A stretch of 64,000 nucleotides of DNA, from NCBI GenBank assembly GCA_951406725.2, contig OX597814.1, positions 111,662,001 through 111,726,000 on the forward strand, read 5' to 3'. This document shows positions 13,601 to 58,462 of this stretch, piece after piece; the first letter of the stretch is position 1; each line of letters starts with the position of its first letter. The notes beneath the pieces were generated by a model. It made no database searches, was not told the origin of the DNA, and saw only the letters and a program-made list of their open reading frames with translations. A program made the translations under genes and the position numbers. This DNA comes from Octopus vulgaris. Its lineage: Eukaryota.

Positions 13601-13886
13601 TTAGGACGTTAAATGTTATGGCCGGTTATGGTCAGTCATAGAGTGACCATTAGTTCCGCCCCTATAAAGCGCTTAGTAGTATAGGCGACTTGTCAGGCTC
13701 AAATGGCCGAAGGCGGACGATCTCTCCACAAATGGTGGAAGACCTCTCCAAATTTCTTCTTCCAGTTGCAGAGAGGTTATGCGCCGTCGGCCATTTGAGC
13801 CTGGCGAGTCATCTATACTGCTAAGCGCTTTATAGGGACGAAACCAATGGTCACTTTATGACTAGCCATAACATTTAACTTCCTAA
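13601..13886. mobile_element. Head-to-head palindromic non-autonomous element with an HHR remnant in each arm
   Basis: Arms of about 115 bp. Right arm (+, 13797-13856): gagc CTGGCGA gtc..ctata..tatag.gac GAAA ccaatgg TC actt. Left arm (-) has CTGACAA. Inferred consensus core CTGACGA. Confidence 0.7.
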
Positions 13887-15399
13887 AGCGTGGCTGTGTG
13901 GTAAGAAGCACGCTTCTCAACCACATAGCTTCGGGTTCAGTCCCACTGCATGGCACCTTGAGAAGATATCTTCTACTATAGTCACGGGCTGGCCAAAGCC
14001 TTGGGAAGTGGATTTGACCGACGGAAACTGAAAGAAGCCCGTCGTGTGTATATATATATATATATATATATATATACATACACTCACATACATACATATG
14101 TGTGTGTGTGTGTGTGTGTGTGTATGTGTGTGTGTATGTGTGCGTGTCTCTATTCCTGTGTTTACGTCCCTTAACTTAGCGGTTCGGCAAAAGGCCCTAT
14201 AGAATAATTATTAGGCTTCAAAAACTAATAAAAACAAGTAAAAGATGAAAGATAATATACATATATGTATATGTGTATATATATATATATATATATATAT
14301 ATATATATATATATACGTACACACACATACATACGCACATACATATGTGTGTGTGTGTGTATATATATATATATACTTAGACAAGGCTCAGCTAGAATTC
14401 GCCCTGGCCATGTCTAACTTGACAGCACCATCTCGAAAAGGCGTTTAATGTTTCATATTAAAGCCCATTCAAGTAAAGAGTAAAATGTTTGCAGAAATAT
14501 ATTCGGGGGTTGTGGTTTACCCGGAATTTGTTATTCTAGGACACGTTTGAATGTTTATGAGATTTTTTCTTCCCTTGTTTGTCTTGGCATGATGTTAACG
14601 AGAACAGGACCAGCTGAAGTGAAATAGTTCTGCCTTAAGTGCTGTGATGTGATGCAACCATGATTTTTGTTGAAGGCGGATGGTACGGGAACCAGGCCTT
14701 GGACGAATATATATTAAAATAATTACAATCAACTGTGTGCCCATTTGCTGTCATGAATGGGCTGAAGAAAATTAAGAATATGCCTATTATATTGAGGAAG
14801 CGAAATTAAAAAAATATATACAATATCTAAAATTCATCGAAAAACAGGCAACTAAAAAGTAACGGGAGATAATACAATAAAACATAATCGAGTTATTTCC
14901 CCTGCATTATAAAACCTTTGATTTTGTTCGCGTCATTATTTTCTGATGTGTTTTTTGTGTTTAAACTTTAAACGAGTTTATTTGGTCTCGCGAAAAGCTT
15001 TTTCTACTTTATGTTATCAATGCTTTTCGTCGGCTTCGAGACTCAGTTTCCGTCAACGTCACTCAGTAGGGGATCAATGAAGCAGAATGTGAATTAAGAC
15101 TAATTAATTGATCCAGAGCATAGATACTATGATTACATCCACAACGAACTACCGTTTAACTCAGAATTGTGAGAATTAACGATTGATGATCTTAGCACAT
15201 GGACAGCAAGTTGTAACATAAGGCATCAAATTTAATACATGGAACATATATTTTATTTACGGAGATGTACATGCATAGCAAGTGACCTGATCTGAGATCG
15301 TGTGCTGATGAAACAAAAACAATTGCAGCGTGGAAGGTGTTTATAAGCTATTTAAAAGCACACAAAAACCATTTGATTCAATTCAACATTTAAATCAAA

Positions 15400-15450
15400 T
15401 TTGTCAAAATATTTTCGTCGCTTTGAGACCGCGACCTGTTCACTGACAAA
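15400..15450 (-). ncRNA. Type I hammerhead ribozyme, G3-C8 core variant, inside a palindromic element (~15250-15524)
   Basis: Minus strand: tttgtca GTGAACA g gtcgc-ggtctcaaa-gcgac GAAA atat TT tgacaaa. Stem I 7 bp, stem II 5 bp, palindromic stem III. Confidence 0.7.
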
Positions 15451-16447
15451 ATTCCGCGCAGCACGGAACTTTGTCAATGAACAGGTCGCATAGCTTATAA
15501 AAACCTCCCACGCTGCAATTGTTTATATTTTATTTATTTTTATAAAGCTAATGGTGCTAAATACTCCAAAGAATCCTATGAAATTTTATAGCATTTCTTC
15601 CGGGTCGAGCATTCTCGTCAACTGATATTACAGTTATATACAAGTACAGGAATGACAGGAATGTTTCAACAGTTGAAACATTCTTGTCACAACCTGGGAT
15701 CTTGAAGACTGCAAGAAAGTATACTAGTCCCTTAATATTTGATATTTCATCTATTCAATAAGACAATCAATACTTCAACATAAACAACAGACAAAGTTGG
15801 AATTCCTTTGAATAAAATATATATATATAGTACTTTTCTTTTCTTTTCTTTTTTTTTTTTACTGGTTTCAGTCATTTGACTGCGGCCATGCTGGAGCACC
15901 GCCCTTAGTCGAGCAAATCGACCTCAGGACTTATTCTTTCTAAGCCTAGTATTTATTCTATCGGCCTCTTTTGCCGCACTGCTAGGTTACGGGGACATAA
16001 ACACACCAGCATCAGTTTTCAAGCGATGTTGGGGGACAAACACAGACATGCAAATACACACGCAAGCACACACACACACACACACACACACACACACACA
16101 CACACACACACACACACACACACACACACACACACACACACACACACACACACATACACACACATACACACATACAACGAGGTTCTTTCAGTTCCCGCTT
16201 ACCAAATCCACTCACAAGGCTTTGGTCGGCCCAATGCTATAGTAGAAGACACTTGCCCAAGGTGCACGCGGTGTGATTGAACTCGGAAACATGCGGTTGA
16301 GAAGCAAGCTTCTTACTACACAGCCATATATATATATATATATATATATATATATATATATATATGCACATACACGTACACATACATACATACATACATA
16401 CATACATACATACATACATACATACATACATACATACATACATATAT

Positions 16448-16592
16448 CCTTGTTTCTTTCTGTGTTCCTTTCTGTGGAAGAGCGTAGGCTCGAAACGTTA
16501 AAGACTTTTTCACTTCCCGAGCGTTAAACTAATACATCTGTTTCTTGTCTACACCACCTGTCTTTGCCTTTTGTTTATTTGTGAATTCTCCC
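16448..16592 (+). mobile_element. Solo 3' terminus of a Neptune-type PLE with HHR-like motif (16468-16503)
   Basis: Near-identical to the reverse complement of 33759-33900. Motif cttt CTGTGGA a gagc-gtag-gctc GAAA cg TT aaag. Flanked by microsatellites. Confidence 0.75.
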
Positions 16593-16604
16593 TATATATA
16601 TATA

Positions 16605-55779: not shown

Positions 55780-55854
55780 CTATGCTGACGATCTTGCAGA
55801 TGTTTGCGTATCCATATACGTAAATATTAACAAGTGAAACTAATTAGTACATAG
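55780..55854 (+). ncRNA. Canonical type I hammerhead ribozyme in a non-coding inverted/direct repeat element (55282-56103)
   Basis: ctatg CTGACGA t cttg...caag t GAAA ctaattag TA catag. Stem III is palindromic. Confidence 0.8.
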
Positions 55855-57008
55855 GTAATCGTTTTTTATTTCGTATACTTTCATTTGACTTGCTTATTTT
55901 TACACTTTGGTTGTTTGCTAAATTTTTTCTTGAGAACACATTCTTCGTGGCAAATGGTGAATTTGATGTCTATTTCTAGCATACAGGCTATCCTCTATTA
56001 GTGGTCATTCCTCTAAATTTTGCATGTATAAAAATTTTCAATCTTCGGATTTTTTAAAAATATGCTAGGCCACTGGTTTTAATTGATCAATATCAATTTC
56101 TACCCTTATTTAATTTCTTCCCAATGTAATGATCTTCCCAAAACACAAGATTTATTTCAACATACGAATTCGCATCAAGAAACTTGCCAACCAAATACAA
56201 AGACGAAGGTTCATCTATCTATCTATCTATCTATCTATCTATCTATCTATCTATCTATCTATCTATCTATCTATCTATCTATCTATCTATCTATCTATCT
56301 ATCTATCTATCTATCTATCTATCTTTGAAGAGGAAAGTGAGAGTAGAGAGGCAAGTTTTGTCTAGTGAATGTTTAAAAAAAAGATGGGTGAATGACGAAG
56401 CCACCTTGACTATGATTCTATGAACCGTAAAAATTAATACAGCGAGTTGCTTATTTGCAAAAAAAAAGAAATATAACATGTGACTTCATTGACCGAGGTT
56501 ACCGTGGTCTTTTCCGTAGGCTTTTCTTCCCACGGGTAAACCTCACCTGTCCTCCCCTTTACACTTCATATTGACATTTCTGTGATAACGATCCCTATTG
56601 ATCAATTTTTTTGCCTTTCCCTTTGTTTTTCCTCTCCCCCCCTTTTTTTTTAAATTAAAAAAAAATTTTTTTAAATTTTGTTCCCTCCTTTTTTTTGTCC
56701 TCTTTATTTCCCTTTACGATCCCTTTTGATCGAAAACCAACCCCCCTTTTTTTACCCCCAAAAGAAAAGCTCTACCTTGTAATTTGTCCTGTCTGTGTGC
56801 AGCCCTGTGTGGCTAATAAAGAAACATATCTATCTATCAATCTATTATCTCTCTCTCTCTCTCTTTCTCTCTCACTCATTCTCTCTCTCTCTCTCTCTCT
56901 CTCTTTCTCTCTTTCTCTCTCTCTCTCTCTCTCTCTCTCTCTCTCTCTCTATATATATATATATATATATATATATATATATATTAAAAATAAAGAAGGC
57001 TGGTTTAA

Positions 57009-57222
57009 GGGTTTACCTTAGGTTTCCCGTCCATAAAGGGTTTAGCTTTATGGTATATCGTCAGATCCCAAAAACTTGTTTGCACATGACCTCTTAAAAA
57101 TGTTGGCCTATGACGTTTTAAAAATGTACATTTTTAAGAGGCCATGGGCCAACAGGTTTTTGGGACCTGACATTACGCCATAGAGCTAAACCCTTTATGG
57201 ACGGGAAACCAAAATTAATCCC
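57009..57222. mobile_element. Head-to-head palindrome with an HHR remnant in each arm
   Basis: Minus arm 57009-57069: gggat CTGACGA tata ccataaag..ctttatgg acgg GAAA cctaagg TA aaccc. The plus arm is decayed. Confidence 0.65.
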
Positions 57223-57456
57223 ATAGCAGTGTCCCTGGTTCACCGGCTAACTACTATGTACATTCCGAATGCTTAAATAAATCCATATATATAATAATTT
57301 ATACATAAATATAAGAGAGTAACCATTATGTGGTCGACTCTAGCACTAAAAATAGATCCGCTAGGTTTCAGCCACAAAGAATTGTTTCCGATGAAAGTTA
57401 GCACGACTACTAGCGCAAACGAACAGGGCAAATAAAAATAACAAAAATGCAGATTA

Positions 57457-57533
57457 GTTCAGGACAATTGTTTCGCTATTAATAAATTATGTAATTTTAC
57501 TCACATAACATATCTGTAGCTCTTCAGCCGAAC
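57457..57533 (-). ncRNA. Canonical type I hammerhead ribozyme in a rearranged non-coding element (57293-58222)
   Basis: gttcgg CTGAAGA gcta...tagc GAAA caattg TC ctgaac. Confidence 0.85.
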
Positions 57534-58462
57534 CCGTCCAGAATACAATTTACTCAACCGCACGTTAGATTTTACCATTACGATAAACACACGTGCGTTT
57601 CAGTCGATTGCATTCGCTGTTATAATTCAAGTGCCCCTGCCACAGCCCGCCAAAATTCACGGAAACAGATACTACATCCAAAATTAAATGTAGTATAATT
57701 ACAATCAACTAATAAGGGTGAGAAAATTGGATACTAATTTAATAGTACATCCATTTAACACCAAGTGGCTTAGTGCATAAATAACCTGGATTTCGATAAA
57801 TTTTATACATAAATATAAGAAGTAACCACTATGTGGTCGACTCTAGCACTAAAAATAGATCCGTTAGGTTTCAGCCACAAAGAATTGTTTCCGATTGCAG
57901 ATATGTTATGTGAGTAAAATTACATAATTTATTCATAGCGAAACAATTGTCCTGAACTAATCTGCATTTTTGTTATTTTTATTTGCCCTGTTCGTTTGCA
58001 CTAGTAGTCGTGCTAACTTTCATAGGAAACAATTCTTTGTGGCTGAAACCTAGCGGATCTATTTTTAGTGCTAGAGTCGACCACATAGTGGTTACTCTCT
58101 TATATTTATGTATAAAATTTATCGAAATCCAGGTTTTTTATGCACTAAGTCACTTTGTGTTAAATGGATGTACTATTAAATTAGTATCCAAATTTCTCAC
58201 CCTTATTAGTTGATTATAATAATTTATATATATATATATATATATATATATATTGCTTACCAACTACATGGTTCTGGGTTCAGTCCCACTGCGTGATACC
58301 TTGGGTAAGTGTCTACTACTATAGCCTCGGGCCGACCAAAGCCTTGTGGGTGGATATCGTAGACGGAAACTGAAAGAAGCCCATCATATATATATATATA
58401 TATATATATATATATATATATATATATATATATATATATATATATATATATATATATATATA

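Follow-up and report, generated by a model that had tools for sequence, protein, structure and literature searches.

What kind of mobile element gives rise to short palindromic repeats that carry a hammerhead ribozyme motif? The question is raised by a stretch of 64,000 nucleotides of the Octopus vulgaris genome (contig OX597814.1, positions 111662001-111726000; genome size 2.8 Gb), hereafter referred to as the window. An earlier note, made from the sequence alone, had described at least seven such elements, each having its left arm in minus sense and its right arm in plus sense, and had proposed that several of them may represent mini-retrozymes, i.e. hammerhead-bearing non-coding elements that are mobilised by Penelope-like elements (PLEs) and integrate as inverted dimers. 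Our results make it very likely that the seven elements, here named E1 to E7 from left to right (Table 1), reflect the insertion architecture of PLEs. Four represent 3'-ends of coding PLEs, two are closed non-coding units, and one is a short unit for which no parent was found; a PLE reverse transcriptase (RT)-endonuclease probably copied all of them from RNA. The families are new and their architecture is the one already known for PLEs, with the core of E2 and the head of E4 as two modest variants.

Hammerhead motifs in seven repeated families

Self-BLAST of the window recovered inverted arms at all seven sites, and placing the family seeds on the window revealed the minus-sense arm on the left and the plus-sense arm on the right in each of E1 to E7. 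Location and polarity are as originally described, apart from the start of E6, which was corrected to 56983. A genome search showed that each element belongs to a repeated family (881-2444 first-look candidates per family, 40 scored). Thirty loci were fetched per family, and the census comprised 280 non-redundant loci of 301, after 9 loci derived from the window and 12 redundant ones had been dropped (21 in total). For E1, E3, and E6, half of the selected loci were chosen for a long upstream extension, and inverted partners located more than 120 nt from the seed escape detection. The background consisted of the flanks of the fetched loci (~0.7-0.9 Mb), which are not a random sample of the genome, and the copy numbers, derived from 1-19 hits, are rough; extrapolation from these few counts gives very roughly 10^5 insertions for the seven families together. 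In contrast to the initial description, the elements are not all unrelated in sequence, since E1 and E6 (local score 103 versus a shuffled maximum of 65) as well as E5 and E7 (118 versus 101) align above all 200 shuffles.

The consensi of all seven families contain a type I hammerhead that comprises stems I and II, the core, GAAA, a stem III of palindromic sequence, and a UH site, in line with the claim that every element harbours such a motif or its remnant. In the consensi of E2, E3, and E4 an extra base follows A9. Among the aligned copies the core was intact in 4/28 (E1), 21/29 (E2), 17/28 (E3), 28/29 (E4), 9/15 (E5), 18/27 (E6), and 24/27 (E7). A hammerhead descriptor yielded 127 matches, compared with 3.0 in shuffles, in 959 kb comprising the window and the fetched loci, the latter being enriched for the families. 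Within the window, the scan detected intact cores only in E2, E4, E5, and E7 (Table 1); the core in the left arm of E6 was read by eye, and the window copies of E1 and E3 are decayed remnants. A relaxed scan of the window gave 15 matches versus 1-8 in five shuffles and was not used as evidence alone; the hammerhead calls are based on the family consensus and the stricter descriptor scan. Rfam indicated no hammerhead among the matches listed for the window (150 of 323) and none in eight fetched loci. Moreover, we observed further hammerhead families without a seed match at loci L043, L128, L150, L188, L198, L281, and L297, with a head-to-head pair of one such family at L188.

Polarity, tails, and target site duplications

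At the 280 non-redundant loci, the 290 selected insertions comprised 81 head-to-head, 2 tail-to-tail, and 207 one-stranded cases; E1, E2, E4, E5, E6, and E7 account for all 81 head-to-head insertions and for none of the tail-to-tail ones. Four queries for short interspersed elements (SINEs) served as the control and gave 4 head-to-head, 5 tail-to-tail, and 357 one-stranded cases among 366 non-edge insertions. With 81 versus 2 in the families and 4 versus 5 in the controls, random polarity was not seen: the polarity of the arms is real, and the palindrome is optional. The notion that the elements are palindromes throughout does not extend to the families, as the head-to-head form makes up 81/290 insertions only and is absent from E3 outside the window (0/58). 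Because the window also holds single-arm hammerhead elements (16472+, 33522+, 33882-, and 40267+), the original set of seven had been selected for palindromes.

E2, E4, E5, and E7 possess two fixed 3'-ends located 37-110 nt apart. In the literature, the tail of a PLE corresponds to the interval between two RT start sites, and hammerhead cleavage is dispensable in vitro (PMC11167929). We followed the tail in the four families, of which E4 and E7 had not been selected for it. Exactly one arm was tailed in 14/14 head-to-head insertions of E4 and in 12/12 classifiable ones of E7 (18 examined), i.e. in 26/26, and the tail was found on the inverted arm in 0/17 insertions of E2 and 0/13 of E5. Either arm may bear the tail, and the end of the inverted arm falls on one or the other of the two fixed start sites. 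The element ends coincide with RT start sites, not with the cleavage site.

Target site duplications (TSDs) of at least 8 nt were present in 10/14 head-to-head and 7/11 one-strand insertions of E2, compared with 7.7% in mismatched flanks (four microsatellite sites dropped), and in 8/13 head-to-head insertions of E4, compared with 1.1% in control flanks. They vary in length from 8 to 17 nt and flank the whole unit, and therefore the head-to-head pair results from a single insertion event.

Short, non-coding, palindromic, high-copy repeats at AT-rich sites are also reminiscent of MITEs (miniature inverted-repeat transposable elements) of DNA transposons, whose inverted repeats would resemble hammerheads by chance. 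We give this explanation practically no credence. Fixed terminal inverted repeats and a TSD of fixed length, as expected of MITEs, were not found; the arms are asymmetric and variable in length, most insertions consist of one arm, the TSDs of E2 and E4 span 8-17 nt, and four of the families run into PLE open reading frames (ORFs). The variable arms together with the variable TSDs refute the MITE reading.

As a separate observation, two head-to-head copies of an abundant hammerhead-free SINE occupy positions 22054-22500 of the window; such pairs are rare among the background copies of this family (2/70 non-edge insertions).

Table 1. Hammerhead elements and head-to-head coding PLEs in the window; (+) and (-) denote the sense of an arm or motif.
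Feature	Position	Putative assignment	Left or minus arm	Right or plus arm	Hammerhead and further features
E1	13600..13887	Head-to-head 3'-ends of a coding PLE family	13600-13742 (-)	13752-13887 (+)	Hammerhead decayed in both arms
E2	15257..15524	~210-nt non-coding element	15257-15463 (-), with tail	15458-15524 (+), internal deletion, no tail	Intact G3:C8 hammerhead in left arm, core start 15443 (-)
E3	17171..17535	Head-to-head 3'-ends of a coding PLE with long CA-rich 3'-UTR			97% identity of the two arms, which are separated and surrounded by (TA)n; atypical within the family
E4	21100..21483	3'-UTR of a coding Penelope/Poseidon-type PLE	(-), tRNA-like head, (AAT)n, hammerhead	(+), head start, deletion, 3'-end with tail	Intact hammerhead in left arm, core start 21189 (-); 11-nt TSD visible
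E5	55276..56116	Closed ~533-nt non-coding unit	55276-55439 (-), inverted arm without hammerhead or tail	55584-56116 (+), full unit; 55466-55584 (+), partial tandem	Hammerhead 55785 (+)
E6	56983..57225	Head-to-head 3'-ends of a coding PLE akin to E1	56983-57101 (-)	57130-57225 (+)	
E7	57295..58223	Closed 504-nt non-coding unit	57298-57895 (-), full unit and partial tandem	57898-58223 (+), 5'-truncated, with ~110-nt tail	Hammerhead 57527 (-)
PLE	18544..20962	Coding PLE fragment (endonuclease part)	18544-19567 (-)	19878-20900 (+)	Tail 20901-20962, right arm only; variant hammerheads 18637 (-) and 20807 (+)
PLE	60341..64000	Coding PLE, complex head-to-head	Minus side with tail and 507-aa open frame	From 62667 through RT and endonuclease, ends ~1.5 kb past the window without tail	Hammerheads 60641 and 62653 on the minus side

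Coding parents of E1, E3, E4, and E6

For E1 and E6, loci were picked with upstream sequence. Colinear endonuclease homology was located upstream in 30/30 loci of E6, of which 26 contained the hammerhead part as well, and in 25/30 loci of E1, of which 23 did so. The CA-rich untranslated region (UTR) of E3 runs up to an endonuclease remnant in loci L288 and L298, and E4 continues into the end of an ORF in 3/30 loci. Because they extend upstream into PLE endonuclease coding sequence, E1, E3, E4, and E6 are, judged by sequence, pseudo-long terminal repeats (pLTRs) or 3'-ends of coding PLEs; no intact full ORF was found among the recovered parents. By their motifs, the parents of E1 and E6 are putatively Neptune-like and those of E3 and E4 Penelope/Poseidon-like. 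The designation of all elements as non-coding thus does not hold, as a property of the family, for these four families with coding parents, and it is only to these four that the opposite possibility raised in the earlier note, namely that every element is the truncated end of a coding PLE, applies. Single-arm copies of a family related to E3 are located at 16440-16600 (+) and 33740-33900 (-) of the window, and both cores show the same one-base deviation.

The tRNA-like head of E4

When new loci were chosen by the ORF end reached by E4, all four showed the E4 head, the AAT run, and the hammerhead ~30 nt past the stop, and RT remnants occur in loci L303-L305. Among the background insertions of E4, 0/6 reached the ORF. 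The consensus head fits both the A-box and the B-box pattern in tRNA register, and the patterns occur in 10/23 (A-box) and 12/23 (B-box) full heads. ARAGORN reported no tRNA for the head in 12 loci, and Rfam no tRNA match in eight. The 5'-ends of 30 copies fell within -17 to +24 of the head start in 16 cases, into the ORF in 3, and at or after the AAT run in 11; the sense strand contains no T4 run. This profile fits a SINE-like derivative transcribed by RNA polymerase III (Pol III). Against a SINE speaks that the head start coincides with a hairpin. Nor did we accept the sharp 5'-ends of E4 as demonstrating transcription by Pol III: those of E3 and E6 are equally sharp without boxes, and each query sets a minimum length.

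We tentatively consider, at chances below even, that E4 is a SINE that arose from a PLE through a tRNA-like Pol III head, captured in the 3'-UTR of the coding element and transcribing the pLTR alone (head, AAT run, hammerhead, and RT start sites), and was spread by the PLE enzyme to ~2x10^4 sites, along with E2 as a high-copy natural G3:C8 ribozyme (see below). If true, E4 would provide a traceable origin for hammerhead SINEs of the Sm-alpha type. In the literature searched we found no report of a tRNA head within the pLTR of a coding PLE.

The non-coding families E2, E5, and E7

E5 and E7 form closed units. A junction of the end with the start was observed in 17/28 E7 and 5/29 E5 loci, with a repeat period of 502-504 nt in E7 and mostly 519-537 nt in E5. 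The longest stop-free stretch amounts to 74-76 aa, and tblastn gave no match of E5 or E7 to PLE proteins. By their organisation, the two families classify as retrozyme-like elements or non-autonomous PLEs. A single E7 locus (L190) of 30, and no E5 locus, contained two sense hammerheads at a distance of one unit, as determined with the exact motif in loci of ~3 kb.

In E2, the start of 39/39 copies falls within 15 nt of a common point, the query favouring copies that reach it. An end-to-start join was found neither in 30 loci nor, with the exact pattern only, genome-wide (0 exact junction matches), and E2 thus shows neither the closed unit nor the head-to-tail join expected of a retrozyme; it is probably non-autonomous. 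In 26/29 copies the catalytic 3:8 pair is swapped to G3:C8. To our knowledge, this pair is otherwise known only from an engineered mutant with partial rescue. The literature searched, PLE-hammerhead variant lists being outside that scope, yielded no natural G3:C8 core and solely the engineered mutant (PMC3088659). E2 would represent a natural G3:C8 ribozyme and E4 is a candidate PLE-mobilised SINE, and both are cheap to test. In one arm of a complex E2 insertion (L105:2178-2480), consensus position 59, where cleavage is predicted, is joined to the tail; this single case may reflect chance microhomology.

E2, E5, and E7 are likely passengers that would be mobilised in trans by the PLE machinery. 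We asked whether they could instead be ends of rare coding PLEs that are absent from the sample, given that E4 also seemed self-contained until 3/30 copies revealed the ORF and that only 39 copies of E2 were examined. However, E5 and E7 loop into their own 3'-end, which leaves no room for an ORF, and the upstream flanks of twenty solo E2 copies share no common sequence. Rare coding parents are therefore unlikely for these families.

Origin of the inverted form

The observed arrangement would be explained if the PLE protein introduces nicks in both strands of an AT-rich target, with reverse transcription starting at two fixed RNA sites, 37-110 nt apart, downstream of the hammerhead, so that one cDNA would be tailed and the other tailless. 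An outward-facing pair within one target duplication would result from joining of the two 5'-ends via hairpins or short overlaps, and a single resulting arm would appear as a one-stranded copy. Cleavage and extension of both target strands by a PLE protein has been described (PMC11167929).

Alternatively, the inverted arm could derive from fold-back self-priming of one cDNA, or of an antisense template, at a hairpin, a model put forward in PMC3846280. In line with this model, the 5'-ends cluster at hairpins in the parents of E3 and E4, and the junctions are often small palindromes. However, a tail on either arm and an inverted arm that ends at fixed sites are explained more simply if both arms begin at RT starts, and the purified Anolis protein extends both strands (PMC11167929). 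Self-priming thus appears somewhat doubtful to us, while still a serious contender.

It is quite improbable that the elements form a separate class of mini-retrozymes, with replication via self-cleaved circles and specific integration in the form of inverted dimers. This reading would be consistent with the closed non-coding units of E5 and E7, with the two sense hammerheads at L190, and with the frequently intact cores of E7 (24/27), E4 (28/29), and E2 (21/29). On the other hand, four of the seven families have coding parents, 207/290 insertions are one-stranded, the exact pattern of an end-to-start junction was not found for E2, and the ends lie at RT start sites instead of the cleavage site. 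Furthermore, a head-to-head transcript of either strand holds one sense hammerhead only, and for four head-to-head transcripts folding predicts a loss of stem I pairing, from 0.47-0.89 down to 0.0. The antisense arm is thus predicted to sequester the sense hammerhead, which would render the inverted form ribozyme-silent. With a single sense hammerhead per transcript, and this one sequestered according to the prediction, the inverted form does not constitute a ribozyme dimer; release of monomers could occur only from direct tandems such as L190. What persists of the mini-retrozyme proposal is that the elements are of PLE type, are not MITEs, and are in part non-autonomous, whereas the layout on which the class was founded is the published insertion structure of PLEs.

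Several observations weigh against the assignment of the seven elements to PLE insertion by priming on both strands. E3 showed no head-to-head insertion outside the window (within 120 nt) and two tail-to-tail ones, its head-to-head form being known from the window copy alone. Among one-strand copies of E4, 1/14 has a TSD, the (AAT)n run splitting the boundaries, and E5 and E7 reside mostly within (TA)n, where TSDs are unreadable. Many junctions overlap by 1-10 nt and some are near-perfect palindromes, which fits self-priming equally well. In the fetched sample, no autonomous partner of E2, E5, or E7 was found among 64 endonuclease 3'-ends, where they occurred as separate insertions only. Finally, the endonuclease was assigned by motifs and by tblastn comparison with frames of the window, and the sole domain recognised by Pfam was the RT of the PLE at 31423.

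Neighbouring features of the window

The two head-to-head coding PLEs listed in Table 1 share the polarity of the short elements (18544-20962 and 60341 to beyond 64000), as had been claimed. In both arms of the former, the variant hammerhead has a U4C-type core, and GAAA is preceded by an extra base. In the latter, positions 60341-60865 are a direct repeat of 62354-62877, and because this repeat includes the head-to-head junction, the minus side resembles a ~2-kb unit copied anew from a template in which an inverted junction was already present. A third coding PLE (31423-33650, +) comprises a 486-aa RT-endonuclease frame and a U3:A8 hammerhead at 33522; it has a single arm and is 5'-truncated at a (TA)n tract. 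A remnant GIY-YIG-like frame at 39629-40380 (+) is followed by a U3:A8 hammerhead at 40267, the family of which recurs in L018, L019, and L199. At 58480-59720 (+), a decayed transposase, presumably mariner-like by its motifs, lies between 47-nt inverted repeats (58440-58486 and 59696-59742). The non-coding repeat at 16606-17100, located between (TA)n tracts and containing short internal palindromes, resembles a non-autonomous Helitron.

Comparison with known systems

For annotation, these results suggest a PLE origin for those short palindromic repeats of the octopus genome that resemble MITEs or unknown SINEs. The one-tail rule (26/26) and the TSDs around head-to-head units provide a clean genomic test bed for the PLE insertion cycle, and E5 and E7 would supply invertebrate examples for the idea, argued in bioRxiv 10.64898/2026.07.22.740005, that the retrozymes of animals represent non-autonomous PLEs. 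In cephalopods, 235 Rfam hammerheads have been listed in the giant squid (PMC6962438) and 31 recently active Penelope-like families in an octopus (PMC13282606); a term search of the main text of the latter found neither "hammerhead" nor "ribozyme".

The insertion structure itself has precedents. Descriptions of solo pLTRs and non-autonomous PLEs, as well as of the inverted 5'-truncated copy, the tail on one side, the TSDs, and the head-to-head polarity, are found in PMC8557442 and PMC3846280. Likewise, PMC4209133 reports opposite-strand hammerhead pairs 100-700 bp apart in Schistosoma, linked to truncated PLEs, as well as U3:A8 cores and an extra base after A9 in PLE hammerheads. With the canonical endonuclease PLEs (Penelope/Poseidon and Neptune) our families share the type I hammerhead with a palindromic stem III, often with an additional base following A9, an inverted copy with 5'-truncation, the tail at one end, partial tandems, the variable TSD, and microsatellite or AT-rich targets. 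They differ in the tail, which measures ~90-140 nt in some octopus families versus the 30-40 nt described, and in the tRNA-like head in the 3'-UTR of the E4 parent.

Animal non-LTR retrozymes, including that of a mussel (PMC7229834), and the Chlamydomonas element MRC1 (PMC8557442) resemble E5 and E7 in the closed non-coding unit, the type I hammerhead, and the head-to-tail joins, and for the animal retrozymes also in the proposed dependence on PLEs. In contrast, the units of E5 and E7 are longer (504-533 nt versus ~170-400 nt) and occur as dispersed monomers or partial tandems with inverted arms, not as long arrays. The schistosome hammerhead SINEs Sm-alpha and Sj-alpha, reviewed in PMC6765202, have a head of the Pol III type upstream of their type I hammerhead, as E4 putatively does. 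However, no tandem arrays were seen for E4, and its head lies inside the 3'-UTR of a coding PLE, together with a PLE tail and the head-to-head layout.

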